Virus record (IMG/VR): IMGVR_UViG_3300025362_000477
Length of the DNA stretch: 64,000 nucleotides
Reading direction: 5' to 3' (one strand)
Origin: a virus
Taxonomy: Duplodnaviria; Caudoviricetes
Positions 1 through 47,472 of this stretch are shown here, one piece after another. The notes beneath the pieces are model-generated. The model ran no database searches. It had not been told where the DNA came from and saw only the letters and a list, made by a program, of their open reading frames with translations. Numbering within the stretch: the stretch's first letter is position 1; each line of letters starts with the position of its first letter. The translations under genes were made by a program, and so were the position numbers.

Positions 1-814
1 TTAATAACTTAATTGGAGATTTTGGGGAAAGTCCTAAAGCTATCCAATTAGCGCCATTCATCTGACAATCAGATTCAATCTTAATTTTCAATTTATTAGA
101 ATCTAATATCTCCCCAACACCAAGAACACAATCACTAGCAGCCCATAAATCATTATTAAATGCGCGTAACCCATCCACTATCAACCCACTCGCGAACATA
201 GAAGCGTTACCATGCATCCTAACCATTTCGTATGGAGTATATACCGCAGTGAAGGGTGCCTGTGGGTAATCCTTATCACCCGATACTGGAAGAAATGATA
301 TACCAGCAAACCACATTCTATTCCGATATACGAACTTTTCTACATCATCCCATTCATCGGGTCGAACATGGATAGTATTAGAAACATTATGTTTCAACCA
401 AGGACGATTTAATGAAGTATATCGGGTTCCGGCTTCTACCCAATTTTGTTGGGTAAGCCTAACATTTTCGAGTAATTCTAATGCACCTACAGTATTTTTT
501 GTTTTTGCCCCATCAGGAACTTCACATAAGAAAGTAATAATTTTATCAGTATCAGACCATACTGATTGTTCAACTGCAGACGGATTAAATGTTTCAAAAT
601 ATTGCAGTGGAGTTTCTATCTTATTCGATTGAACTCTTCTAAAATATCTCTTAGCATGATGAGGATGAATTCCAGACGCTGTTCCTAAAATACAACTTGT
701 TGTATTATGAGTCACTGTTCGATTAGATAATTGATATGTATGTGAACCGCCGACCTCAATGTCTACAGTCATTTGTTTCTTCTTATTCAATAATGGTTTT
801 AATATAATTTTCAT
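1..814 (-). CDS. nrdJ: Class II ribonucleotide reductase C-terminal half preceded by a 37-aa split-intein C-fragment (runs off the window edge)
   Basis: Hand-translated; absent from the ORF track. ATG at 814 after GGGGG SD: MKIILKPLLNKKKQMTVDIEVGGSHTYQLSNRTVTHN|TTSCILGTASGIHPHHAKRYFRRVQ...HNVSNTIHV...GISFLP. No stop seen in the segments translated, including the window edge. Confidence 0.93.
   Translation of the reverse strand, partial: MKIILKPLLNKKKQMTVDIEVGGSHTYQLSNRTVTHNTTSCILGTASGIHPHHAKRYFRRVQSNKIETPLQYFETFNPSAVEQSVWSDTDKIITFLCEVPDGAKTKNTVGALELLENVRLTQQNWVEAGTRYTSLNRPWLKHNVSNTIHVRPDEWDDVEKFVYRNRMWFAGISFLPVSGDKDYPQAPFTAVYTPYEMVRMHGNASMFASGLIVDGLRAFNNDLWAASDCVLGVGEILDSNKLKIKIESDCQMNGANWIALGLSPKSPIKLL
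704..814 (-). other. Split intein C-fragment (IntC, 37 aa) of NrdJ
   Basis: Block F-like TVDIEV..SHTY, terminal His-Asn, +1 residue Thr. Confidence 0.92.
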
Positions 815-1853
815 AAAATCCCCCGTCATTTAAGTTATAAAATTCTTGTTCCCATATAATTAACACATTATATCCCAATTCTTTCAATGTATCAATTCTT
901 TTCTGATCAGATTTCCATATATCAGAAGCTGTCATTTTCATAGTGGGATGATAAGAATCAGAATTCCATTGAAGTGGATTACAATGCCAATAATCTCCAA
1001 AAAATTCAATTATTGTATTGTAATCATCTAAAAAAATATCAACAAAATAAGACAATATTCGTTTAGAATCAGTATATCTTATATGATATTCATCCAATAT
1101 TTTTAAAATTTCTTTCTCTGGTTTTGATTGGCTCCCTGATTTCCATATTTGAGATTTAACCATCTTTTCATATCTTTTAGTTCCCTCTTTTTCACCATAT
1201 TTATCAATAAAAAATACTAAATCATGAGTTGAATTTTTCTTCAATATCTCCGCAGCTTCTATTTCCGTATACCCCCGTTTGATCCAATACTGTTTATTGA
1301 AATAACTATTAGTTCTTAGTTTTGAAATATATTTTAGATATCTTTCACACCCTTTAACATCCCCGTATCGATCAACAAATGAATTTAATGTCTGGGTAGA
1401 TCTAAAAGAATGTTTTTTCTTAATATCTTTAATCTCTACATCATCGTATCCATTCAATCTCAATGATGCTTCACTAACTGATAATTTTTTATTTTTTTCT
1501 TTATATCTCAATAATCCATCATCTTTACCATATTTATCAACATACCATTGAAGAGTACCCCGCTTTTTATAATTTAACAATACTTTATTCCATTTTTTCA
1601 ATCCTATTTCATCGCCAAACTTTCGAATATAATAATCTTTATCAAAACCTTTCAATGGTAATATATCATCTAAAGTATAAGTAGGCGGTAAAAATTGAAG
1701 ATAAAACTCAAAACAAGATGATTTTGGATTTCTATCTGGAAAATTTTTTTGTTTGAATTCTCGCATAGATATCTGCAAATCACATAATTTTTTAAATTTA
1801 TCTAATTCCAATTCAAACTCAGTAATTTTGTTTTTTGCTAGGATTACCTTCAT
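783..1853 (-). CDS. Free-standing homing endonuclease-like protein (KYG repeats plus Vsr/PD-(D/E)XK-like C-terminus) between the nrdJ halves
   Basis: Repeated YxxKYGxxxG units; C-terminal SKPE...VDIF...IEFFGDYWH...GYNVLIIWE. Confidence 0.8.
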   Translation of the reverse strand: MKVILAKNKITEFELELDKFKKLCDLQISMREFKQKNFPDRNPKSSCFEFYLQFLPPTYTLDDILPLKGFDKDYYIRKFGDEIGLKKWNKVLLNYKKRGTLQWYVDKYGKDDGLLRYKEKNKKLSVSEASLRLNGYDDVEIKDIKKKHSFRSTQTLNSFVDRYGDVKGCERYLKYISKLRTNSYFNKQYWIKRGYTEIEAAEILKKNSTHDLVFFIDKYGEKEGTKRYEKMVKSQIWKSGSQSKPEKEILKILDEYHIRYTDSKRILSYFVDIFLDDYNTIIEFFGDYWHCNPLQWNSDSYHPTMKMTASDIWKSDQKRIDTLKELGYNVLIIWEQEFYNLNDGGFYENYIKTIIE

Positions 1854-1913
1854 AAATTAAACCTCTGTTAAATTAATATAATTATATACTTTTAATTTAA
1901 TTCATATCATAAA

Positions 1914-3644
1914 TCAAAAAGATACTATATCATCACCGACATCCAATTCATCAGCACGCTTCCATAATCCATTAGTTAATTTAAACTTATGATTAGGAGT
2001 ACATGTATATATTGATCCATCTTCAAATGGAATATTGTACACATCAGATTCACCATTAACATATAATTTTGTAACCTTTTCCAATTCATCATTCTCATTA
2101 TAAATATATAATGGATATTTCAAATCTAACCATATATCTGATTGATTTTCATAATCCTTTAAATCATAACCCTGTTCATTAAATATGAGTTCTAAACTCT
2201 TATCACCATCAATAGTTCTAACTTCACTATCTATAGAAAGACATCCCGCTGGTTTAACGCAAGTTGCTCTAGCACATTTATTAATCCCAAGAATAGCAGA
2301 TATCCGCTCATTCTCAGATAATATTAATTTAGCTCCTTGTCTTTGTAATTTAGGATCAAATGCAATTTCAGGAACATCGGACATACCAGTCATTGATACA
2401 CCAAGTAAAGCTTCTTTCTCTGCAATAAGATGACTCACCTCACCAAGATAATCAAATTGAGTATATTTAGCTTGAATAGTGCCAAGAATAGCTCCTGCCT
2501 TACACGCTTCTAAAAATCGTTCTGGACTAGTAGCTTTTTTAAGATTAATTTCACATAAGTTACAAAATTGCCATCCAGATAGAATATCATTATTACCCTG
2601 AATTCTAATTTCATCAGCAAATTTCACTCTAAGTTCATCTGTCAAATCAAGTTTAGCAAACATACCAATTTCAACACATGGATTATATAAAGCATCAACA
2701 TTATCAGCCCACACAAATCCAGGTTCACCAAATTCTTTAACTCTATGCATCAATTTTGAAAATGTTTCTCTATCAGTACCATTTCTAATTAGAACAGCTG
2801 AATTATTAGATCTAGCTCTATGTTTAAATTCTTTTCTCCATGATCCAGTCTTTGAATCTGCCATTTCATCATCTTCTGGTGAGAATAAACAAATGGTTGC
2901 ACTACGTCTAATACCTCCTGATAATACTGCTTCTGAAGAATGCATTATAATATCATAAGCATTAATTGGCTTCAGTTTATCTTGATGTTTAGAACATATA
3001 TCCATTAAATGAGCAATAGCATCTAAAGATTCATGCAATTTATCTGGACCCGGAGCCTTAGCCCCTGACGATAACGGTGAACCTTTTGGTCTAATTTCAC
3101 TATAATCAAAATTAACTTTTTTACCAAAATATTCTGGAAATGGAGAATTTGCATCAACAAAATAAGATGAAAGTAAAACCCCAAGAGCATCAGCCCATCC
3201 TTCGATAGTGTCAGGAATAGTATATGTTATTTCATCTTCTTGATTGATTGACCTAATACCCGGAAGTTTATTTACATGACAGTATTGTACTGAAAATCCT
3301 ACTCCACAACCACATAAAAGTAACCACATTGATTCTTGAAAGAATCTAGGACGATCACAATATGAAACAGTACAATTATATAACCTAGCATTCTTTTTCA
3401 AAATAGGATCACCACCAAATTGAAGTGCTCGTTGAGAACCAAGTACTCTTTTTTGCATAACCATTTTTTTAGCAAATGCAAAATCATCTTTAATATTATG
3501 AATCATATCAGAACCAAGATACTCTTCATGCATATTAAATACTCTATCTACTTGTTCTTGCCAAGTTTCACGTCGATGTAATTCTGGACAATATCTCGCA
3601 TATCGAGCAAATCGAGTATATTCCTGTAAAGCTGTAATAGACAT
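1914..3644 (-). CDS. nrdJ: Class II ribonucleotide reductase N-terminal half fused to a split-intein N-fragment
   Basis: YNCT, GCGVGFS, SGGIRRSA, NPCVEI, FCNLCEIN motifs; ...VKPAG| then CLSIDSEV...CTPNHKF...ADELDVGD. Confidence 0.95.
   Translation of the reverse strand: MSITALQEYTRFARYARYCPELHRRETWQEQVDRVFNMHEEYLGSDMIHNIKDDFAFAKKMVMQKRVLGSQRALQFGGDPILKKNARLYNCTVSYCDRPRFFQESMWLLLCGCGVGFSVQYCHVNKLPGIRSINQEDEITYTIPDTIEGWADALGVLLSSYFVDANSPFPEYFGKKVNFDYSEIRPKGSPLSSGAKAPGPDKLHESLDAIAHLMDICSKHQDKLKPINAYDIIMHSSEAVLSGGIRRSATICLFSPEDDEMADSKTGSWRKEFKHRARSNNSAVLIRNGTDRETFSKLMHRVKEFGEPGFVWADNVDALYNPCVEIGMFAKLDLTDELRVKFADEIRIQGNNDILSGWQFCNLCEINLKKATSPERFLEACKAGAILGTIQAKYTQFDYLGEVSHLIAEKEALLGVSMTGMSDVPEIAFDPKLQRQGAKLILSENERISAILGINKCARATCVKPAGCLSIDSEVRTIDGDKSLELIFNEQGYDLKDYENQSDIWLDLKYPLYIYNENDELEKVTKLYVNGESDVYNIPFEDGSIYTCTPNHKFKLTNGLWKRADELDVGDDIVSF
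1917..2243 (-). other. Split intein N-fragment (IntN, 109 aa) of NrdJ
   Basis: Starts CLSIDSEV (block A), has TPNH (block B TxxH), ends ADELDVGD then stop. Confidence 0.92.
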
Positions 3645-3665
3645 ATATATTTTCCCTTCATTAAA

Positions 3666-4049
3666 TCATGGTTGTTTCTGGAATTTAGCTAATTTTTGAG
3701 CTGCTGCTGATAAATTCGTTTCTTTTTTTCTTTTTTCGATAGTAGATACATTCATAGTCATACCATCTATATTGACAGTAGGTATGAATGGTCTCGATGA
3801 TAGTTCAGCCACCTCTTTTTTCTCACCATTTTCCCGATAAGTCGGATGGTGATCTTTTAATTCTTTAAGGGCGTTAGTCATATTACTCATCGCAGATCTC
3901 ATTTCAAAGGTCAAAGAATCAATTTTTTCATTTAAATCCTTCTGTTCCTTTCTGAGAGAAATATTTTTTTCAAGTAATGAAGACTGTTCTCTCATATTCA
4001 TTAAGAACCTCTTTGAATTTCTTTGTATCCACAGTAAGCTATTCCACAT
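3666..4049 (-). CDS. Hypothetical coiled-coil protein (true start probably slightly downstream)
   Basis: ORF track; heptad-like composition. Confidence 0.6.
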   Translation of the reverse strand: MWNSLLWIQRNSKRFLMNMREQSSLLEKNISLRKEQKDLNEKIDSLTFEMRSAMSNMTNALKELKDHHPTYRENGEKKEVAELSSRPFIPTVNIDGMTMNVSTIEKRKKETNLSAAAQKLAKFQKQP

Positions 4050-4756
4050 GCGTCACTTATATCCTCTGTAAAACCTGTTTGAGCTGCAATATCGTTTTTA
4101 ACATTATTCATTTTTTTATCAAATGCCTTTTGTGATAACTTCATATTTTCTTTTTCTAATTTAATAGATATATCTAATTCTTTAATTCGCTCTCTTGTAG
4201 CTAAACCATTGAAAACATCTAATTTATTTCTCTTTCTATTTAATGCAGCTTTACACTTATTGATTTCAACTCTACTAGATTTTATATATTGTTTCAAATC
4301 ATCGATTCGTTGCAAATCTATATTAACTTGAACTTTGATATTATCAAAATTACCAGTTATGGGAATATTATAATGTTTAATTACAGCCAATTGAGTTTGC
4401 CATTTTTTTGCATTACCCATTAAACCTTCAAATGAATGACATTTCCAATAACATGGTTCATATAATTTAACTCTCTCCTGTAATATGGTAAATGTAGTAT
4501 TTATTGCAACTCCATTCAATCTAGCCAGAAATGCTAAAGTCTTAGCACCTGAAATTCCTAATATAACATCCTCTATAAAACAATAATCGGGATGCAACCG
4601 AGTCACTAAATTTTTTAACTCCAAATGAAAATAATGTAACTTCTGTGGTAAAGACATACCTGATATTAATCGAATAGTACCGCGATCAATCAACACATCA
4701 TCTTCTAAATATACCCACCCAGTAGCCGTAGCAATATCCAATCCTAAATATTTCAT
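4001..4756 (-). CDS. RuvC-like Holliday junction resolvase with a long helical insertion
   Basis: YLGLDIATATGW, CFIEDV and DISDACGIA acidic motifs. Confidence 0.8.
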   Translation of the reverse strand: MKYLGLDIATATGWVYLEDDVLIDRGTIRLISGMSLPQKLHYFHLELKNLVTRLHPDYCFIEDVILGISGAKTLAFLARLNGVAINTTFTILQERVKLYEPCYWKCHSFEGLMGNAKKWQTQLAVIKHYNIPITGNFDNIKVQVNIDLQRIDDLKQYIKSSRVEINKCKAALNRKRNKLDVFNGLATRERIKELDISIKLEKENMKLSQKAFDKKMNNVKNDIAAQTGFTEDISDACGIAYCGYKEIQRGS

Positions 4757-4769
4757 AAACTATTTCCTA

Positions 4770-5234
4770 TTAATGAACGTCCAATACTTTTAAACAAAAA
4801 GATGGAATTACACCATCAGAACATTCAATAGCAGTCCGAGGTAAAGAATTTAAATCATCCTCATTAGCAATCATAGATGATAATTTTTTAGAGTATTTAA
4901 CTAATATCTTTTCAATATCAAACTCATCTAATGTACCCTTTTCCCATTCAAAATTAACCGGTTTAATAATAACCTTCTGATCTTTAATCTTTGATAATTT
5001 AGATGCAGATATTTTAACAGGAGTATGACTTTCCAAATATCCAGAATATTTATTTGGAGGTATCCTAGTAAAAAATGCAGTTATAGATCCTTCTTCTCCA
5101 CATGAAAGACCATTTTCCTTAATATCTTCTATTTCATCATTTGATATATAAGCATAAAGATATGGTTTTATTATAAGCATATCAATATTTGGATCACCTA
5201 GTACAATTTCTGAAATTATTTTATATCCGTTCAT
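4770..5234 (-). CDS. Hypothetical protein
   Basis: ORF track; SD supplied by the end of the upstream gene. Confidence 0.6.
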   Translation of the reverse strand: MNGYKIISEIVLGDPNIDMLIIKPYLYAYISNDEIEDIKENGLSCGEEGSITAFFTRIPPNKYSGYLESHTPVKISASKLSKIKDQKVIIKPVNFEWEKGTLDEFDIEKILVKYSKKLSSMIANEDDLNSLPRTAIECSDGVIPSFCLKVLDVH

Positions 5235-6150
5235 TATTAATTACCTCTTTAAATTTTTGTATAATAGGTTCTGAATCAGATAACCATTCAGATTCTTTGA
5301 TTCTAAAAACTATATAACCTAAATCATTATAAATTTCATTCTTTTTTTTATCATGTAATATGGCCCATGGTTTTCTATGATATGATTCATCAATTTCAAT
5401 TATTAAATCTAAATGTTCAACTAAACCATCAGGATAAAATCCACCTATAATCTGATTTCTCAAAATATTATTTTGCACAATAAACTGTAACTGCTCTATT
5501 ATGATGTCTTCATTCAATCCTTTACCAGGAAATCCAAATATGTTAAATCTTGCGAAATTTTTACGAGCAATATCTTTACATTTATCTGTTTTAGAATAAT
5601 TATCAACACCATATTTTTTAAGACATGATTTTTCAATTTTCAATCTAATAATATCTGAACCAAATCCAACTCCACCATATTTTTTTACACATGATAATTT
5701 TTGTTTTAATTTAACCTCTTCTGATTGATTCGGACTGGATGTACCATAATTTTCAAGTGATGTTTTTTTACTTTTATTCTGAATTATTTTAGATTGTAAC
5801 GGACACTCTACACCCCAATTCTTTATAGATGTCTTAATTTTTTTATGTTTTACAATAATTGATTGAGATGGGTTGTCTACTCCATATCGTTTATTACATG
5901 TTATTCTATTTTTTAACAAACATTCTTTGGATCTACATTGACATTTTCTACTACAGTAATCATAATACCCATACCGATAACCTTTAAAATTAGTCAAAGA
6001 TCCGCACGTCAAACATATTCCATCGTTTTTTGTTTTTATAAATTTATCATAATAATCTTTCATTCTAAATTTATGACATTGAAATAAATGTGCCGCAAAT
6101 CCCCTAAGATCATTTATTTCATATTCATCACATATTTTACATTTATCCAT
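5221..6150 (-). CDS. Zn-finger/KYG-repeat DUF559-like homing endonuclease (start revised to MDKCKIC)
   Basis: CxxC...HxxxH, CxxCG, CSxxC, KKYG repeats, FYPDG...IIEIDESYH. Confidence 0.75.
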   Translation of the reverse strand: MDKCKICDEYEINDLRGFAAHLFQCHKFRMKDYYDKFIKTKNDGICLTCGSLTNFKGYRYGYYDYCSRKCQCRSKECLLKNRITCNKRYGVDNPSQSIIVKHKKIKTSIKNWGVECPLQSKIIQNKSKKTSLENYGTSSPNQSEEVKLKQKLSCVKKYGGVGFGSDIIRLKIEKSCLKKYGVDNYSKTDKCKDIARKNFARFNIFGFPGKGLNEDIIIEQLQFIVQNNILRNQIIGGFYPDGLVEHLDLIIEIDESYHRKPWAILHDKKKNEIYNDLGYIVFRIKESEWLSDSEPIIQKFKEVINNERI

Positions 6151-6853
6151 GATCAAACACCACATTAGGAATAGCTGATCTTTCAAATTTCTCGATAGTT
6201 CTATCATAAATCTCTTTCCCATCTTGATATAGCATATCACCATTTAAAGGTATTTCCCCAAATGGAGTTTGAGTAGTACTATACTTTGATCTGAGTCTCC
6301 CGAGCATCATAAAGAACATGCCTAAGCACAGGTCAATAAAATTATCTTCCATTTCTGGATTTATAGATGATAATTCCGGATCATGAGATCTCTCATATTC
6401 TACAGTAGCTTTACCATGGAACTTTGGAGTTATGCGCAGACAATTCGGTGGAATAAACTCATGGCAGTATTTATAATTAGAAAACGGGGCTAATAAATTT
6501 GAATTAAATACACTTAAGTGCCATTCTGGTACTTCACTCGCTGACCAAGGACCCAAAAATGGATGACCATTCATAATAGTTGGAGATAAAGTTGGAATTA
6601 CATCTATTACCGTTTTTATTTCCCTCTCATCTGGATCTATTAAGTAAAACTCAGAAGAACGACCAGGAACTTTAAATGTATTATCGGCACAATCAAGAGT
6701 CAATCTCCATTTTTGAGGATAATAAAATGTAAATTTTCTTAAAGCATTTCTCTTTAAATAATCTATAATCTGTTCATCACTCTTTTCTAGCATCTGAAAC
6801 GGTAAAGATAATTCTTCTCTTACACGTTCTACGATAAAACCCCATGATAACAT
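6143..6853 (-). CDS. Putative neck/head-completion protein (T4 gp13-like)
   Basis: C-terminal FGEIPLNGDMLYQDGKEI resembles the gp13-family motif; promoter-like motif upstream. Confidence 0.55.
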   Translation of the reverse strand: MLSWGFIVERVREELSLPFQMLEKSDEQIIDYLKRNALRKFTFYYPQKWRLTLDCADNTFKVPGRSSEFYLIDPDEREIKTVIDVIPTLSPTIMNGHPFLGPWSASEVPEWHLSVFNSNLLAPFSNYKYCHEFIPPNCLRITPKFHGKATVEYERSHDPELSSINPEMEDNFIDLCLGMFFMMLGRLRSKYSTTQTPFGEIPLNGDMLYQDGKEIYDRTIEKFERSAIPNVVFDHG

Positions 6854-6906
6854 AATTAAATCCTTTTTACATTTGTTCTAATCTGATAAAAATATCGATG
6901 ATATTA

Positions 6907-7494
6907 TTATATATCTTTTTGAAGATATGTTTTTGCAAGATCAGCAAATACATTAGGAGCATGATCATTTAGAATATCCAAACACTTAGTCATAGCATAT
7001 CTGATTTCCCATTGTGCATGTTTATCACATCTCACTGCAAATATAGATCTCCATTCTCTAAAATTACAAGTAGTAACAATCTCAGAACAGCATGCATTTG
7101 GTAATACAAATCGAGCATCTTCTTTTTTAACACCCCTAATAATCCATTCATTATACATTGATTGTATGGTTTTCATATGTGAATCATATAACGCCTGATG
7201 TTTCTTTATAGCTGGAGGAGTAACATAATCAAATTGATCTTCTGATACATATCTCTGACTCTTCTGGTTAAACGAACATAGACGATGCCTAACTAGTTGA
7301 TGTGTCATTACTCTGGATACACCACTAAATTTAAAAGTAGCATATGCATGTTCTAAAGCAGAATGATGTCCATTTTTAATAAGAGCACCTATTAACTTTC
7401 CATCACCTTTATATTGACTTTGATAACATGTACGTGCAGCTAACTCAATAGCAGCTTCAGCATCAGGTGTTATTGAATTTAAATGTATATTCAT
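6907..7494 (-). CDS. thyX: Flavin-dependent thymidylate synthase
   Basis: GHHSALEH, RHRLCSFNQKSQRY, ARFVLP, NFREWR, HAQWEIR. Confidence 0.97.
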   Translation of the reverse strand: MNIHLNSITPDAEAAIELAARTCYQSQYKGDGKLIGALIKNGHHSALEHAYATFKFSGVSRVMTHQLVRHRLCSFNQKSQRYVSEDQFDYVTPPAIKKHQALYDSHMKTIQSMYNEWIIRGVKKEDARFVLPNACCSEIVTTCNFREWRSIFAVRCDKHAQWEIRYAMTKCLDILNDHAPNVFADLAKTYLQKDI

Positions 7495-7558
7495 TACCTA
7501 TTCTCCTTCCTTTTAACTAATTTTAATCAACACATAAAACCTTTATTTTCTTTTTCCA

Positions 7559-8722
7559 TCATATATCTCCAAATAAATTTAATAGAGTAGCTTCGCTTAT
7601 AATATCACTCTGACCAGCCTTAGCCAATGCGTTATGTAATACTCCAGCTTGATTACACTTGTTTGTATTATGTACAGTATCTGTAATTTTCTTCTTTTTA
7701 GCAAATACTTCTGTTGGATAATCACCATTAACATAATCAGATAACAATTTATATGATGCTAACTTTAAATTTCTGATAATGATATCTTCTGCAGCTATAA
7801 TCTTATTCAAAGCTTTATTAGATGTTGCATATGATTTAGAGAATATTGATAATCCTTTTGATATATTATCATATACTTTATCCATTGAATTACCACACAT
7901 TGTTTTAACATATCCAAAAGTTTTTTGTAATGCAACTGGTCCAACTCCAGTAACGCCTTTAAACCCATCTCCATCATCTCCAATAATTGATAATACTAAT
8001 GGGAACCATAACCCTTGATCCTCAGTTTCTAAATCCTTTTTTAACCAGTGAGTATATATATCATCTTGGGATATCATTTTTACACTTTTGTAGTGTTTAT
8101 AAAATTGATATATGTTAGAAGCATCCAAACATTGAAGCATATCTTTATCAGTACTATAAACTATATTTACAGCAGATTCAACATCTTCTTTAGGTAATGC
8201 ATGTTTCATTAAATACCAAGGAACAAAATCAGCTTCCATTCTATCCAATCTAATAAAAGAAACTCCTGGTATTTTATTAGCTACCTTTTCGGCCACTATA
8301 TAATTTTTACTTAAAATAGTAAAATAAAAATCCTTCTTCTCCATATCTAATCCGAAAAAATCACCTGATTGTCGATTTGATTTATAACCATCATAAACAT
8401 CCAAATGATATTTAGATTTACCAGTTTCCATAAACATATACATATGTAAATCAATTTGTCTCTTCTTTGCATACATTTTATGAAACCCAATAAAATCCAT
8501 TATAGCTGAAAAAAGAGATGTGTCGATTGACCGAGATCCTTGACTCTGAAACAAAATTTGTTTAACAGCCCATTCTTGAAACAATGCTTGTCCGCATCCT
8601 TTAACATCAATATATAAATTAACTCGCCGCCTACCAGATAGAGATATAACATTATCAAGATACTCGTATTTTGGATAATATGAAAACATTTGAGATGTAC
8701 TAGAATTCCATTGCTCATTCAT
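7559..8722 (-). CDS. 5'-3' exonuclease / flap endonuclease (T4 RNase H-like)
   Basis: EADF, STDKDMLQ, IGDDGDGFKGVTGVG helix-hairpin-helix. Confidence 0.85.
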   Translation of the reverse strand: MNEQWNSSTSQMFSYYPKYEYLDNVISLSGRRRVNLYIDVKGCGQALFQEWAVKQILFQSQGSRSIDTSLFSAIMDFIGFHKMYAKKRQIDLHMYMFMETGKSKYHLDVYDGYKSNRQSGDFFGLDMEKKDFYFTILSKNYIVAEKVANKIPGVSFIRLDRMEADFVPWYLMKHALPKEDVESAVNIVYSTDKDMLQCLDASNIYQFYKHYKSVKMISQDDIYTHWLKKDLETEDQGLWFPLVLSIIGDDGDGFKGVTGVGPVALQKTFGYVKTMCGNSMDKVYDNISKGLSIFSKSYATSNKALNKIIAAEDIIIRNLKLASYKLLSDYVNGDYPTEVFAKKKKITDTVHNTNKCNQAGVLHNALAKAGQSDIISEATLLNLFGDI

Positions 8723-8765
8723 ATAACAGATAACTCCTTTTTAATTTATTCTATAAACTAAAATG

Positions 8766-10712
8766 TTATACATAATAAAAAAATTGAACCATTTCTCCAA
8801 TAATTGGTTTTATTTTTAATGTTATTGTATTAGCATCTATATCTATTTCATAATCATCACCATAATTCAATTTTCCACCATATGAAACAACAATAATATT
8901 TTCATGTCTATCTATTGGTTCAGCTATATCAATTACTATATTATCTTCTATACGATCAATATCACCTTGAGTAAACTCATACATTGCAACTAATTTAGAT
9001 TCTTTAATAACTAATAACTCTCCGCCGATATAAATTGAAGATCCTCTAGCTGGAGCTGAAATAAAATTCAATTGATTATTATTAATGACACTATAATCAA
9101 TATCCTGTATTTGTAAAACATCATTTACATAGATCAATAACCCTTCAGTATTTTTATCATCCAATATATATCCCATAGGAAATTGAGTTTTAAGACCATC
9201 AGTATAATCACACACAAGTCTCTTAGACATATGATTAACATGTTCAGTTGCCTTTTGCATAGGTAAATCATATGGAAATAAACCATCTTTAGCAACTACC
9301 ATAGCTTCCTTATATGCATCCGGATCAACCTCTTTAATATCAAGTAAAGCATCAAAATTAGAAGCAGCATCATTTGAATTAACTTCTATTACTGTTAATT
9401 CTCCATCATATATTTTACGGCGACGAGTATCCAATGTAACACATTCATCAACCTTTGATAATACTAATGATTTCTCTTCATTTGTTAAATTACATATACA
9501 TGGTTTCTTCATAATTTCACATTTAGAATAAAATTCATCTGATCCAGTATCATTAATACTGATAGCAGCACATGCTTTTCTAAGATATGGTAAATAATCT
9601 TTTTTATAAGAATCTATCACAATGATATTATCTCTTTTCACTTTATTTTTTGGATCAGAAATAAACTCATCATTTATATATAAAAGAACACCACTACTAA
9701 TATGAGACCATACTTGTAATTTAATTGGATACACTAAAGAATTTTCAGAAAAATCAATCAATAAATTATCTCGTTCCTCGATATCATTTTCTATCCGATA
9801 AAAATTAAATCCATTTTCAAAAAATTTATCATAAACTTTAGTATCTTTTAATGCAGATATAATTTTATAAGGAGATATCATTGGATATTTAGTATGAGTA
9901 GAACCCATAGATAAATTCAATGTTAAAGTTGGATCAATATGTTCTGATAATACAATATATGTTGGGAGATTAACTTCATACCCAAATGATGCCGTTAATT
10001 TATGTTCAGATACATTATCCCCACCATGTTTAGTAGAATTATCAGAAAATGATTCAAGTCTCCACATTGGATGGAGGTTTAATGGAATAACTCTCTTATG
10101 TTTATTAATAGTCTGAATATGCATTACTTCTGATAATGTATTTCCCCAATCAATCTGTTCACCATCTTCTTTTTCATATTCTGCTATTGATTCTGGTAGC
10201 ATTAAATAAGTCCAAAAAATATCTGGACGACACCATCTATTAAAACCACCACAAAATTGAAGTAAAGCAACTCTAAAATCCATGATTTCATAAATAGATG
10301 ATAACCAAAAAGTAACTTCAAAAGTCCCCTGGTATCTAGAATGAACAGGAGTTACTATTATATCCTGTTCCTTTAAATCAATACTAGGCCACAATCTAAG
10401 ACCCATAGCTGGAGCATACCTAGAATGTTGCCATAAAAACTTTCCGGCATGTTCAGCATTAGAAAAATCAATCATCGGATCTAAAGTTATACTTGGTAAT
10501 ATATTAGAAGTGATCTCAGTACCATGAATCTTTTTCTTTTTGAAGAATTCAATTGCCTTATCAAATGAGCCAATAACTTTATAATTAAATCGGGGATAGA
10601 ATTCTTCATCAAACCAATTAAGAATCCCATTGAAAAAAGAACCAAAAACATTATGGATAAAAAATGTATTAGTTACTTGATGCTCTCTGCTTCTTTTATC
10701 ATACCCAGGCAT
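8766..10712 (-). CDS. Putative structural protein (possible tail-terminator-like N-terminus; C-terminal small beta-sandwich repeats)
   Basis: LPSITL...FEVTFWL; IYVNDVLQ...DY....L.F..AP and L.YG.DY...I.L repeats typical of virion proteins. Confidence 0.45.
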   Translation of the reverse strand: MPGYDKRSREHQVTNTFFIHNVFGSFFNGILNWFDEEFYPRFNYKVIGSFDKAIEFFKKKKIHGTEITSNILPSITLDPMIDFSNAEHAGKFLWQHSRYAPAMGLRLWPSIDLKEQDIIVTPVHSRYQGTFEVTFWLSSIYEIMDFRVALLQFCGGFNRWCRPDIFWTYLMLPESIAEYEKEDGEQIDWGNTLSEVMHIQTINKHKRVIPLNLHPMWRLESFSDNSTKHGGDNVSEHKLTASFGYEVNLPTYIVLSEHIDPTLTLNLSMGSTHTKYPMISPYKIISALKDTKVYDKFFENGFNFYRIENDIEERDNLLIDFSENSLVYPIKLQVWSHISSGVLLYINDEFISDPKNKVKRDNIIVIDSYKKDYLPYLRKACAAISINDTGSDEFYSKCEIMKKPCICNLTNEEKSLVLSKVDECVTLDTRRRKIYDGELTVIEVNSNDAASNFDALLDIKEVDPDAYKEAMVVAKDGLFPYDLPMQKATEHVNHMSKRLVCDYTDGLKTQFPMGYILDDKNTEGLLIYVNDVLQIQDIDYSVINNNQLNFISAPARGSSIYIGGELLVIKESKLVAMYEFTQGDIDRIEDNIVIDIAEPIDRHENIIVVSYGGKLNYGDDYEIDIDANTITLKIKPIIGEMVQFFYYV

Positions 10713-27555: not shown

Positions 27556-27771
27556 ATGTTTGAAAGTGGAGATAATATGTTAGATCAATTATGGGTTGAA
27601 AAATTTAGACCTAGAACAATTGATGATGTCGTATTGAATGCTGATCAAAAGGAATTTGTTGAAAGGTGTTTAGCGAAGCAGGAAATACCTCACATGGCGT
27701 TTTTTGGACCACCTGGATCCGGGAAATGCCATGCAGGTGATGAAACGATTACAATATATGTAGAAGATTAA
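27556..27771 (+). CDS. Clamp-loader (RFC/gp44-like) N-terminal fragment plus a 14-aa split-intein N-fragment
   Basis: LWVEKFRPRTIDDV...FFGPPGSGK|CHAGDETITIYVED*. Confidence 0.93.
   Translation: MFESGDNMLDQLWVEKFRPRTIDDVVLNADQKEFVERCLAKQEIPHMAFFGPPGSGKCHAGDETITIYVED
27727..27768 (+). other. Ultra-short split intein N-fragment (14 aa)
   Basis: Block A only (C-H-A-G-D-E-T-I), immediately after the Walker A Lys. Confidence 0.88.
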
Positions 27772-27815
27772 AATAATTCCATATCCAGCATGAATAAATA
27801 TAAAGGATTGCTAAT

Positions 27816-29105
27816 ATGAAATGTAAAATTTGTTCAAAAGAATATGCGAAATTATCATCATTCATTCAGCATATTATTAAAGGTCATAATATATTATTTT
27901 ATGATTATTGTTTAGAATATGACGATAGTTTAATTAGATGTCAATATTGTAAAAATATAGTCGATCGTGGATGTTCTTATTCATTCTGTGGTAGTAAACA
28001 TTGTAGATCATTTAAAATGCGATTAAGTAGGTACCCATCAGTTAATGATATTTTTAATATCTATGATCCGCTATATTGGATTTCTTTCTATGATAATGAT
28101 ATCATTAAAACCAATGAAAAATTATCATATTTAAAAAATTTTGATGTGTTTTTGAAATCTGACCAATATTTAAAATTGTTTAAAAGTGAAAATTTAGAAT
28201 GTGATTTCTTTCAATTTATTGATAGAATTAAAGATGGGTTAATAAATATTGAAGATTTAAAAAAATATAAAAATATGAATTCTATTGGACGATATAACGT
28301 TTTGGGTTTTAGTGAAGATGTTTTTAAAATTTTAAACCCGTATTTTACCACTAATAAAGAATCATATATTGATCGACATGGAAAAAATAAATGGGAACAA
28401 TATTCCAGTAAATTAGGTAGTACTCAAGTAATATCTTGTTGGCAAACTAAATACTGGATAAATAAAGGTTATTCATATGAAGATGCAAAAAAATTAATTT
28501 CAAAAAATGCAAGTAGAGATATTAATTATTTTATAAATAAATATGGAAAAGAAAAAGGAAAACAGTCATATCAAAATATGATCGAAAAAAGAAAATTTTC
28601 TTTTAGTTTAGAGGGTTATTGTAAAAAATATGGTTCAGATGGATTTAAAAAATACCATGAATGTATTAAAAAGAAGACTTCATGGGTTCCAAATATACAA
28701 AGTAAAGTATCATTAGATTGTATTTCTGAGTTATATACATTATTACCCAATAATATAAAATGCATATATGAAGAACCAATTGAATTTTACGTGTGTGATT
28801 TTTATTTTCCAGAATTGAAATGCGTTATAGAATTTTATGGTGATTACTGGCATCAAAATCCATTGATATCTAATATCGGAGATCGATATCATATTGAAAA
28901 ATGTCATGATAATCATAAAAGACGATCTGAATGTTTATTGAATTCAGGTCGAGTTGATAAAATTATCATTGTGTGGGAATTAGCATATACTAAATCTAAA
29001 ACTGAATGTTTATTAAATATATTAAAATGTTTTAAATTACACCACAAATATAATGAATTAAATTTTCAAAATGGGAATATATTATATAATAAGGAGTTAA
29101 TATAA
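27816..29105 (+). CDS. Free-standing homing endonuclease-like protein between the clamp-loader halves
   Basis: YWINKGY...YFINKYGKEKG; VIEFYGDYWH; homologous to 783..1853. Confidence 0.8.
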   Translation: MKCKICSKEYAKLSSFIQHIIKGHNILFYDYCLEYDDSLIRCQYCKNIVDRGCSYSFCGSKHCRSFKMRLSRYPSVNDIFNIYDPLYWISFYDNDIIKTNEKLSYLKNFDVFLKSDQYLKLFKSENLECDFFQFIDRIKDGLINIEDLKKYKNMNSIGRYNVLGFSEDVFKILNPYFTTNKESYIDRHGKNKWEQYSSKLGSTQVISCWQTKYWINKGYSYEDAKKLISKNASRDINYFINKYGKEKGKQSYQNMIEKRKFSFSLEGYCKKYGSDGFKKYHECIKKKTSWVPNIQSKVSLDCISELYTLLPNNIKCIYEEPIEFYVCDFYFPELKCVIEFYGDYWHQNPLISNIGDRYHIEKCHDNHKRRSECLLNSGRVDKIIIVWELAYTKSKTECLLNILKCFKLHHKYNELNFQNGNILYNKELI

Positions 29106-29506
29106 TGAAAAAAATAACAATTAATTTTAAAGATTTGTTTGATATCTATTCAATATCAGATAAATCCAATGATGTTCATGAATTATCAAAAAAGATTTTT
29201 GTAAAAGATCCAAGTGGTAAATTGGTACCTGTTAGAGGTATCATTAAAAAAACCGATGTGGATATGTGTAAATTTACAACAGAAAATAATATATCTCGAA
29301 AAATGGCATATGGGCATTTACTAAAATGCACAACTGGTTTTAAACAATTAAAAGATATAGATAATAATGATGATATTTATATTTATAATAATCAATCTAC
29401 GAAGATTAAATCAATAGAACCGTGTAACGATATTGATGTTGCTTATGATATTTCTTTAGATGCACCCCATGAATATGTTACACCTGATAATTTAATTCAT
29501 CATAAT
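29105..29506 (+). other. Long split intein C-fragment (blocks B, F, G)
   Basis: MAYGHLL (variant block B), YDISL..H.Y, HHN, +1 Thr. Confidence 0.88.
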
Positions 29507-30325
29507 ACAACAATAGCCAGAATCATTGTTGATGCATTGATTCAAAATGATTCTGATGTGTTAGTAATGAATGGATCCGATAATACTGGTGTTGAATCTA
29601 TGCGAACAACAGTAGCTGGATTCTTAAAATCACCGCCATATCAGGCTAAATTGAAGATTGTATATATTGATGAATTTGATTACACAACTCAGAATGCTCA
29701 AGCGGTTTTGCGTAATATGATGGAAGCATATTCTTCAACGGGTAGATTTATAATAACCGGCAATTACTGGTCTAAGGTAATGGAACCAATTCAATCTCGA
29801 TTCACATTATATGAGATGAAGACCTTACCAAAGGAATTTGTAATTGAATATGCAAAGAATATTCTTACTAAAGAGAAAGTAGAATTTGATGAACAGTCTG
29901 TTGAATTAATCGTTACTAGTTTATTACCTGATGTGCGAAAAGTTGTAAATACTTTGCAAAAAAATACAATTAATAAGAAACTAAAGAAGATTGATGTAAA
30001 TACTATTATCAGTAATGAAAAGAAAATTAGTGGCTTGTTGGTTCAAATAGGTGAACAGATGGGTAGTGCTTCAGAAAAAGCAACTATTAATAGAAACATA
30101 CCTCAGATAACGGAGTTATTAAATACTGGATCAGAACCAGACTATCTCCATATCTATCAGACATTGTTTTTTCATCCAGAGTTACCAGCATGGGCTAAGA
30201 TTAAAGTAAATGAATATTCAAATAAGCATAATTCATGTGTAAATCCAGTTAGTCATTTCATGGCAATGGTATATGATGTAGTTCAATCTGGTATGACATT
30301 CTTTAATTTATTTGGCAAAAAATAA
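29105..30325 (+). CDS. Split-intein C-fragment (134 aa) fused to the clamp-loader C-terminal part
   Basis: ...AYDISLDAPHEYVTPDNLIHHN|TTIARII...IDEFD...AQAVLRN...IQSRF. Confidence 0.93.
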   Translation: MKKITINFKDLFDIYSISDKSNDVHELSKKIFVKDPSGKLVPVRGIIKKTDVDMCKFTTENNISRKMAYGHLLKCTTGFKQLKDIDNNDDIYIYNNQSTKIKSIEPCNDIDVAYDISLDAPHEYVTPDNLIHHNTTIARIIVDALIQNDSDVLVMNGSDNTGVESMRTTVAGFLKSPPYQAKLKIVYIDEFDYTTQNAQAVLRNMMEAYSSTGRFIITGNYWSKVMEPIQSRFTLYEMKTLPKEFVIEYAKNILTKEKVEFDEQSVELIVTSLLPDVRKVVNTLQKNTINKKLKKIDVNTIISNEKKISGLLVQIGEQMGSASEKATINRNIPQITELLNTGSEPDYLHIYQTLFFHPELPAWAKIKVNEYSNKHNSCVNPVSHFMAMVYDVVQSGMTFFNLFGKK

Positions 30326-45750: not shown

Positions 45751-47472
45751 TTATTTTTTCATTACAAATTTATAATTCCCACAATCATAAATCCATGCAT
45801 ATTTTTCAAGTGACATAATTTGAAATTCTGTTAATGATGGATCATATGAATTCATATTCACTAATCGTTTTTTACTAAAATTGAGTCGATGTTTTCTACC
45901 AGTAATTCCCTTTCCCCAATACCAATAATTTGGAGATGTAATATAATCCAAGTTAAAACCTAATTTGTAATATACATTTCCAATCGACCATCTCATATCA
46001 GCGAATGATATAATTTCAATCCATTCATTTTCTCGTTTAAATGTTTGTAATAATTTCGATGCTCCTCCATATATAATAGTATTTTCTAAACTACAAAATC
46101 TATCTAATTCATATCGACAAGTTTGATTTTTGCTACTGAATGTCATAACCGAAACTAATTTATTTTCATAATATAATCCATAATTAATTTGGGAAACTTT
46201 ATCTCCCTGTAAATGATATCTTTTCAAAAATTTAGATTTAGTTGTAAAATCAATATGTCTCACTTGACATTTCGATGCTCTAATCTTATGTAATATATTT
46301 GATTTCCCCAATATAGAAGCTAATCTAGATTTTACTAAATTTTTATTTAATATCCATTCATCTTCAAATATAGTAATTAATTGATATGATTTACTAGATG
46401 TTTCATGCATTTTATTTTTATGATAATTTTTATCTCGAAGATAAGGGGCATTTCCTCCACTACTATGGCACCATAACCCACAATATTCAATGGCTATTTT
46501 TCTTTCAGGTATGACAATATCTAATTCAAGTGGTGATATAATAGATCTATCATTATCAATAACAACTAAATCTAACGATCTAATATAATTTGAAATTTCT
46601 TTTTCTTGAAATGATGATCCATTATTGCGGGGATAGCATGTTGGACATACTCCTCCTCCTTGTTGGAATGAATTCCATAATATTTGAAAATCAGTATTAC
46701 ATTTATCACAATGTAAAGTTACATTTTCATGGGCATGAGTATAATCAGATACAAGATGATATCCTCTGGATTCGATTAATAAATTAACATATTTATAGAA
46801 TTCTTCAGTTTGTAAACTCTTTCGAACCTTTTCTCGATTCTCTTCTAAATACATTACGTTATCTACACCATATTTTAAAAGACATGTTGTTTTTCTTTTT
46901 TCTTGTGTCTCATAAGTTTGTGTAGACCATTCTTTTCCACAATTTTTTATATGGGTTTTCTTTTTCTTATCTGTTATACTTTTATGAGATAATCCATCAT
47001 CACCAAAATGTTTTTGAATAGTTTCTTTCTTTTTTAATTTCACAGAATCTAATTGATTAGTACTAGTGACTCCATATTTTTCAAAAACAGTTTTTTTAGC
47101 TTTATTCTTAACTTCAATTCTTTGCATTGGATTCTCTACTCCATATCTGGATAGATTTGTTTTTTTAATTTTTTCTCTATATTCATATGAGTATGGAAAA
47201 CATTTTGCACAATAAAGAGAATATCCATCAGATATAGATTTGAATCGCACTCGTGATATACATTTATCATTTAATGATGGACATGTAGGGGGAGTGATCA
47301 TATCATTTATAATTAAAAAAATAGATTCAGCCATACTCTTTATATTATTATCTATTTGAAATTTTTTAACTATTTCAAAAATATTGGGATGTTTAAATTT
47401 TAATTTTCTAATTATACCTTGTGGTTTAGTTTCTAAAATTAAATTTTTTAAAATAAGTATATTATCATTCAT
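45751..47472 (-). CDS. Hef-like homing endonuclease, antisense to the capsid gene
   Basis: KYG repeats, ELDI.IPE.KIAIEYCGLWCHS, ITIFEDEW, C-terminal FADMRWS.G.VY..LGF...YDCG. Confidence 0.8.
   Translation of the reverse strand: MNDNILILKNLILETKPQGIIRKLKFKHPNIFEIVKKFQIDNNIKSMAESIFLIINDMITPPTCPSLNDKCISRVRFKSISDGYSLYCAKCFPYSYEYREKIKKTNLSRYGVENPMQRIEVKNKAKKTVFEKYGVTSTNQLDSVKLKKKETIQKHFGDDGLSHKSITDKKKKTHIKNCGKEWSTQTYETQEKRKTTCLLKYGVDNVMYLEENREKVRKSLQTEEFYKYVNLLIESRGYHLVSDYTHAHENVTLHCDKCNTDFQILWNSFQQGGGVCPTCYPRNNGSSFQEKEISNYIRSLDLVVIDNDRSIISPLELDIVIPERKIAIEYCGLWCHSSGGNAPYLRDKNYHKNKMHETSSKSYQLITIFEDEWILNKNLVKSRLASILGKSNILHKIRASKCQVRHIDFTTKSKFLKRYHLQGDKVSQINYGLYYENKLVSVMTFSSKNQTCRYELDRFCSLENTIIYGGASKLLQTFKRENEWIEIISFADMRWSIGNVYYKLGFNLDYITSPNYWYWGKGITGRKHRLNFSKKRLVNMNSYDPSLTEFQIMSLEKYAWIYDCGNYKFVMKK

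Follow-up and report, generated by a model that had tools for sequence, protein, structure and literature searches.

Fractured genes, in which a free-standing GIY-YIG or Vsr-like endonuclease gene lies between the split-intein halves of a single host gene, were described in 2009, and in class II ribonucleotide reductase (RNR) the split inteins NrdJ-1 and NrdJ-2 share a single site beside the thiyl-radical Cys (PMC2677866). The sequence considered here is a stretch of phage DNA of 64,000 nucleotides (nt; IMG/VR record IMGVR_UViG_3300025362_000477; hereafter the window, meaning the whole stretch), AT-rich (31% G+C), belonging to a T4-like jumbo phage from a salt lake whose genes in the window include those for a family B DNA polymerase, DnaB, a gp20-type portal, ThyX and IMPDH. 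Its first 3,644 nt hold an nrdJ gene of the monomeric type (NrdJ/RTPR) which, judging from the sequence, is very probably a fractured gene: its pieces carry the halves of a mini-intein, and a gene for a Vsr-like homing endonuclease is inserted in the intein loop, the usual place of intein endonuclease domains.

The locus resembles those of NrdJ-1 and NrdJ-2 in its class II RNR host and in its arrangement, with the half bearing the intein N-fragment (IntN), a Vsr-like endonuclease and the half bearing the intein C-fragment (IntC) all on one strand, and it resembles NrdJ-1 in the pairing of an acidic IntN with a basic IntC (PMC2677866). The position of the intein is different. The NPC codons of the NPCVEI motif (2676..2684, minus strand; motif at residues 321-326) are uninterrupted, and the window intein lies 144 residues downstream of the NPC site, at VKPAG/TTS (a slash marks an intein junction throughout), with Thr at the position following the intein (+1), where NrdJ-1 has Ser. 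The sequence is different as well: the solved NrdJ-1 intein (8ubs) ranks only 27th among PDB inteins when compared with the window intein (E 0.52), the nearest solved intein by sequence being the Mtu RecA mini-intein (6e-5). A first-pass annotation of this DNA had proposed a split intein allele distinct from the known ones in a class II RNR whose NPC site is intact, and the distance of 144 residues from the NrdJ-1 site, the remoteness of the intein sequence and the unbroken NPCVEI all bear this out. No intein at this nrdJ site is named in Dassa 2009, Novikova 2016, Dwivedi 2013, Pinto 2020, Swithers 2009, Green 2018, Kelley 2016 or a 2025 actinophage preprint, InBase and the Pietrokovski intein database being outside this search, and in these papers both the insertion site and the allele are apparently undescribed; the fractured-gene arrangement with a Vsr-like endonuclease is itself already known since 2009 (PMC2677866).

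The closest inteins in isolated phages are the mini-inteins in class Ia NrdA of Campylobacter phages (F355, NCTC12673, PC14; CP220, CPt10, vB_CcoM-IBB_35), which are homologous to the window intein (30-32% identity over intein and flanks, E down to 6e-20). The junction in F355 NrdA, APTA/C...HN/TSGRS, corresponds to the KPAG/TTS position, whereas that of CP220, PPAGN/C...HN/SSK, lies one residue further downstream. Unlike the window intein, the Campylobacter NrdA inteins are contiguous, have no internal endonuclease and reside in a class I host.

The N-half of nrdJ, the endonuclease gene and the C-half are all encoded on the minus strand of the window. The open reading frame (ORF) of the N-half (1914..3644, 576 amino acids, aa) consists of the N-extein of a class II, RTPR-type, adenosylcobalamin-dependent RNR (2244..3644, residues 1-467, C-terminal VKPAG) and of a 109-aa IntN (residues 468-576; 1914..2243 including the stop codon at 1914..1916, coding 1917..2243), whose first residue, Cys1 (Cys468, codon 2241..2243), stands directly after VKPAG. 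An AT-rich spacer of 60 nt (1854..1913), with AGAGG before the ATG, leads from the IntN stop to the free-standing Vsr-like endonuclease gene (783..1853, 356 aa), and the 3' end of the latter overlaps the start of the C-half (ATG at 814) by 32 nt. The C-half opens with a 37-aa IntC (704..814, from MKIILKP to VTHN, with a penultimate His and a terminal Asn) and continues with the C-extein (2..703), which starts with Thr+1, TTSCILGTASGIHP, and is 335 residues long, the first 234 lying inside the window and the others past the window start. The whole inserted element (IntN, endonuclease and IntC; 704..2243) interrupts a motif that is continuous elsewhere.

The first-pass annotation had read these pieces in the same way, with an N-half ending in VKPAG and followed by a 109-aa IntN (CLSIDSEV...TPNH), an endonuclease ORF behind it, and an ORF from 814 that overlaps the endonuclease end and runs through a 37-aa IntC ending THN into TTSCILGTASGIHP; all of these are present, the N-half ORF reaching its stop after a C-terminal DDIVSF. 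It had also remarked that the C-half is absent from the ORF track, which is true but is only an effect of the window edge: the C-half ORF is open from the first bases of the window and runs off its start, and it is missing from the ORF list because it is cut there. On the phage's own contig the full C-half is a called gene of 372 aa (L029:8831-9949), and its C-terminus carries the cysteine pair CSGGAC.

As start of the C-half we preferred the ATG at 814, which has a Shine-Dalgarno-like GGGGGA (819..824, minus strand) 4 nt upstream, inside the 3' end of the endonuclease gene, and which gives the MK[IV] start common to all six split loci (that of the window and the five related ones described below); an ATG at 829, not conserved and without a Shine-Dalgarno sequence, was rejected. 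Read-through of the N-half stop into the endonuclease ORF, with which the N-half shares its frame, was rejected too, as three in-frame stops separate the two ORFs (two of them in the 60-nt spacer) and the C-half is in a different frame.

Both pieces match RNR profiles. Residues 1-467 of the N-half match phrog_367 (phage RNR; 2.2e-68, profile positions 35-522) and the C-half matches the continuation of the same profile (3.8e-19, positions 520-663); NCBIfam RTPR (TIGR02505) covers the N-half at profile positions 173-450 (1.8e-42) and the C-half at 517-678, both under the equivalog cut-off. The N-half was also matched by Pfam RNR-II_ins_dom. The N-half of the window is present on four assembled contigs, and the IntN/endonuclease and endonuclease/IntC junctions are bridged, with zero differences, by contigs from two other salt-lake samples. 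The DNA contigs, which cannot show absence, contain no well-supported joint that skips the endonuclease, and a search for close DNA relatives among 50,697 phage records gave just one weak extein match. None of the RNA runs contained this stretch.

To place the insertion, the N-extein, IntN, endonuclease, IntC and C-extein were run as separate tblastn queries against 28 related IMG/VR loci. The codon of residue 467 directly precedes the codon of C-extein residue 1 in all 28 uninterrupted homologues, and for this reason we regard the insertion as exact and in-frame; an alignment to uninterrupted NrdJ homologues was the check that the first-pass annotation had suggested, and its outcome agrees with the junction proposed there. 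Neither the intein nor the endonuclease of the window was found in any of these 28 loci.

The inserted sequence carries the hallmarks of an intein. NCBIfam intein_Nterm (TIGR01445) matches residues 468-554 (25.4 bits, cut-off 24.5) and Pfam Intein_splicing (PF14890) matches weakly (20.4 bits, under the 35.8 cut-off); the block-B TxxH motif is TPNH at residues 549-552, and Cys1 and the block-B Thr and His are invariant in an alignment of 40 sequences with 33-67% identity to the window copy. IntC ends in VTHN followed by Thr+1, and the five related split loci and the two contiguous alleles P0002 and P0009 described below have [ST]HN followed by T or S. The net charges are -14 for IntN and +4 for IntC. 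Judged by these motifs, the site at VKPAG/TTS in nrdJ holds a canonical class 1 mini-intein that is naturally split. A prediction of the complex between N-half residues 463-576 and C-half residues 1-45 gave a score of 0.77, with 0.00 for the best control; 51 of 78 solved complexes and 2 of 108 mismatched pairs came up to this mark. The prediction supports a likeness to split inteins, the binding itself being predicted.

A predicted IntN-IntC complex shows association only, not chemistry, and one RNR that an endonuclease has divided is documented to work with neither protein nor RNA splicing (Crona et al. 2010, PMC3045599). In Aeromonas phage Aeh1 the RNR large subunit is, as here, split by a mobile gene (mobE) while the enzyme is still needed, and its pieces NrdA-a and NrdA-b, which have no intein, are assembled non-covalently by short tails (PMC3045599), whereas the window phage has complete intein halves. 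The RNR pieces of the window phage could be thought to assemble in the same non-covalent manner, the intein halves being docking domains with no splicing. We consider this very unlikely, since Cys1, the block-B Thr and His, the terminal His-Asn and the Thr or Ser at +1 are kept in 40-70 clusters at 33-67% identity, which would be unexpected under selection for docking only, and since the break falls in the KPAG/TTS loop, a motif continuous in 28/28 uninterrupted homologues.

The relatives of the intein also speak for a splicing element divided by an endonuclease gene. A search with the IntN region found 11 close relatives, six of which are N-halves of 536-571 aa that end just past the intein N-fragment, and P0004 and P0006 also end in the same IntN. 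In two others, of the same intein lineage and host clade, one ORF of 952-954 aa includes a contiguous mini-intein at VKPAG/C...HN/TTS and there is no endonuclease gene; these are P0002 (intein of 151 aa, on L078, 66% identity) and P0009 (159 aa, on L079, 56%), the identities being over the searched residues 440-576. These contiguous inteins can be aligned over their full length with IntN plus IntC from the six split loci, and the break lies at the canonical split position.

With the contiguous intein as query, a HMMER search of 1.84 billion cluster representatives gave 1130 matches at E <= 0.001. Among the best 150 of these together with the close relatives, an intein directly follows KP[AST]G in 70 protein clusters, 60 of which were counted as split because the ORF ends 103-135 residues after Cys1, the other 10 being contiguous. 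Ten clusters were looked up; all were metagenomic and none had a meaningful name. The KP[AST]G/C intein allele is widespread in metagenomes, not rare. In cellular genomes only uninterrupted nrdJ was seen at the site in a pattern scan of genome contigs, an absence that is weak evidence because the scan rests on two peptide patterns.

The layout of N-half with IntN, endonuclease, and IntC with C-half recurs in five other metagenomic contigs (L030-L034), whose endonucleases (355-376 aa) have 29-40% identity to that of the window and whose IntC measure 36-37 aa. The endonuclease gene overlaps the start of the C-half by 17-32 nt in the window phage and in four of the five related loci, and L034 has a 6-nt gap there; from the IntN stop to the endonuclease start there are 165-171 nt in two loci (L031:1732-1902 and L033:3661-3825) and 38-62 nt in the others. 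A called 65-aa ORF lies in the spacer of L031.

Group I introns with endonuclease ORFs are common in phage RNR genes (PMC3653736), and it can be asked whether the insert of the window is likewise removed from the RNA as a group I or II intron with a homing endonuclease ORF. However, just 60 nt of the insert are non-coding, its flanks are conserved intein halves colinear with contiguous inteins, and no Rfam family was matched at E <= 1 except for a spurious long non-coding RNA match; on these grounds there is hardly any chance that the insert is an intron.

Comparison with the contiguous allele on L078 suggests how the fractured gene arose. At the DNA level the exteins of the two loci are 75% identical and the IntN regions 74%, so that extein and intein are equally diverged; the sequences are colinear until 10 nt before the IntN stop and again from inside IntC, and a 1184-nt insert in the window phage stands for a 97-nt loop of L078. 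From the equal identity of exteins and IntN, the colinearity and the similar rates of synonymous substitution (dS), it follows that the intein was already present in the common ancestor of the window phage and the L078 phage. On this sequence comparison, the two alleles differ by gain or loss of the endonuclease cassette, a difference that agrees with step II of the Dassa et al. scheme, the invasion of an intein gene by a free-standing endonuclease (PMC2677866). The ratios of nonsynonymous to synonymous substitution (dN/dS, Nei-Gojobori) against L078 are 0.20 for IntN, 0.19 for IntC and 0.14 for the exteins, values that are rough because dS is near saturation, and on them purifying selection constrains the intein nearly as strongly as the enzyme.

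These values also bear on whether the gene is still in use. Some invaded phage RNR genes seem to degenerate, as in nrdA of Campylobacter phage CPt10 (PMC3653736), and the nrdJ of the window could by the same token be a decaying pseudogene disrupted by the insertion of the endonuclease. We hold this to be extremely improbable: both pieces are intact ORFs, the extein dN/dS is low, the C-terminal Cys pair is present, the layout is kept in five diverged loci and the sequence is identical in three samples.

Because 60 of the 70 clusters are split, the halves appear to be under purifying selection and extein and intein are equally diverged, it may be argued further that the KP[AS]G/[TS] nrdJ intein makes up a large phage-borne family whose split, endonuclease-bearing state is long-lived and dominant and not a passing stage. 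We put this forward as a rather doubtful proposition. If it were true, the split state might serve the phage, for instance by making active RNR dependent on the co-expression of both halves.

Several points weigh against the fractured-gene interpretation or the selection argued for it. The dS against L078 is 1.1-1.4 throughout, which is near saturation. Cys or Ser serves as the +1 nucleophile more commonly than Thr does. The complex score may partly reflect memory of solved split inteins, because split-intein complexes have already been solved, and both the splicing of the halves and the cleavage target of the endonuclease are inferred. Two features seen elsewhere upstream of such endonuclease genes are not supported for this copy: a 9-bp AU inverted repeat there folds no better than shuffled sequence (z -0.27), and TATAAATA is not found, TATATAAT standing in its place. 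In fractured genes a hairpin and/or TATAAATA, a T4-type late-promoter element, upstream of the endonuclease is frequent but not obligatory (PMC2677866).

In four of the five related loci TATAAATA precedes the ATG of the endonuclease gene by no more than 40 nt (within L030:7715-7754, L031:1863-1902, L033:3786-3825 and L034:7874-7913), and across the window it is not enriched (22 observed, 19.9 expected). A promoter and terminator scan of the window was uninformative, because it returned fewer promoter-like sites than shuffled sequences did; it returned zero terminators.

The endonuclease matches PHROGs homing endonuclease families and, over nearly the whole profile, NCBIfam Vsr (3.9e-7), and its best sequence match in PDB is E. 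coli Vsr (E 0.02). Residues D272, H290 and D316 align to Vsr D51, H69 and D97, the roles of which are known (PMC3239194), the counterpart of Vsr E25 not being placed; H290 and E283 are invariant in 8 endonuclease homologues. An AlphaFold2 model built with eight homologues has a mean predicted local distance difference test score of 74.7, with 82-92 over residues 271-340 in the C-terminal domain, and Foldseek returned Vsr (1cw0, 1vsr) and the catalytic domain of I-Bth0305I (3r3p), with probability 1.00 and template modelling (TM) scores by target of 0.53-0.75. On sequence and model together, the C-terminal domain is a Vsr-like (EDxHD-family) nuclease, while the N-terminal two thirds form an array of helical KYGxxxGxxxY modules. 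I-Bth0305I, the EDxHD prototype (PDB 3R3P, PMC3239194), has the same nuclease fold (Foldseek probability 1.00, TM score by target 0.69-0.75), but it is encoded in an intron of recA and carries N-terminal motifs of the NUMOD type (PMC3239194), whereas the window endonuclease is free-standing within an intein gene and has the long KYGxxxGxxxY array.

We return to the fractured nrdJ with a splicing intein, for which the following course can be proposed. The 576-aa N-piece and the 372-aa C-piece would be translated separately; the acidic IntN and the basic IntC would associate and form the Hint fold; and protein trans-splicing, presumably by Cys1, the block-B Thr and His, the terminal His-Asn and Thr+1, would join VKPAG to TTSCILG and give an active enzyme of approximately 802 aa. 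By analogy with other homing endonucleases, the endonuclease may spread itself by cutting alleles that do not have it.

A second natural split-intein site in class II RNR is well supported. The KPAG/TTS loop is, we presume, the counterpart of the substrate-phosphate-binding loop of class I R1; if this correspondence is true, the site fits the known preference of inteins for conserved active-site motifs. The contiguous and fractured alleles found side by side in close relatives illustrate the step of the Dassa et al. model at which an endonuclease invades a mini-intein (PMC2677866). A split intein with Cys1 and Thr+1, of 109 and 37 aa and with dozens of natural variants, is a candidate orthogonal tool for protein ligation, and the locus shows why fractured RNR genes get annotated as truncated or hypothetical ORFs.

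The nrdJ clade that hosts this intein has three more intein sites, YN/CTVSY, NP/CVEI and FC/NLCE (the last in P0004). The first, at about residue 90, has contiguous LAGLIDADG inteins in L013 and L016. At NP/CVEI, at about residue 323, L010 is fractured, with a 246-aa ORF, and L011 and L017 carry contiguous LAGLIDADG inteins. In L034 (ENA ERZ831745 contig, 4584-10477) nrdJ has been broken into four pieces or more. The N-piece carries an IntN at NP/C. The middle piece (P0004) begins with the matching IntC, has a contiguous LAGLIDADG intein at FC/NLCE and the KPAG IntN at its end, and the endonuclease gene comes next. After it, as the last piece seen, comes a 50-aa ORF made of IntC and 13 extein residues, with a stop after TASGIH, the remaining C-extein resuming 347 nt downstream of this ORF.

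A class Ia nrdA in at least three pieces, with a GIY-YIG endonuclease between the first two, was found in L035 (JGI 3300023242 contig, 1-7973), where PPTAS in the middle piece (P0012) is followed by a terminal IntN of 35% identity. The same contig has a 373-aa homologue of the Vsr-like endonuclease after a DnaB_C gene, which may mark another fractured gene.

Elsewhere in the window, a second fractured gene was noted at a clamp-loader locus (27556-30325, plus strand). There, a 429-aa ORF (27816..29105, plus strand) is homologous to the endonuclease of the nrdJ locus (26% identity, E 8e-19), and in the following 406-aa ORF (29105..30325, plus strand) a match to a clamp-loader delta-subunit domain starts at residue 148, consistent with a long IntC. 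The phage has further free-standing genes that are endonuclease-like. The ORF at 5221..6243 (minus strand) has repeated YGVxNxSQS modules (DUF7487) and a DUF559/MTES_1575 nuclease domain; the ORF at 45751..47472 (minus strand) and a called gene on the phage's contig (L029:9939-10832) also match DUF7487, the called gene matching DUF559 as well. Genes of the homing-endonuclease type are plentiful in this phage genome and come in at least two architectures.

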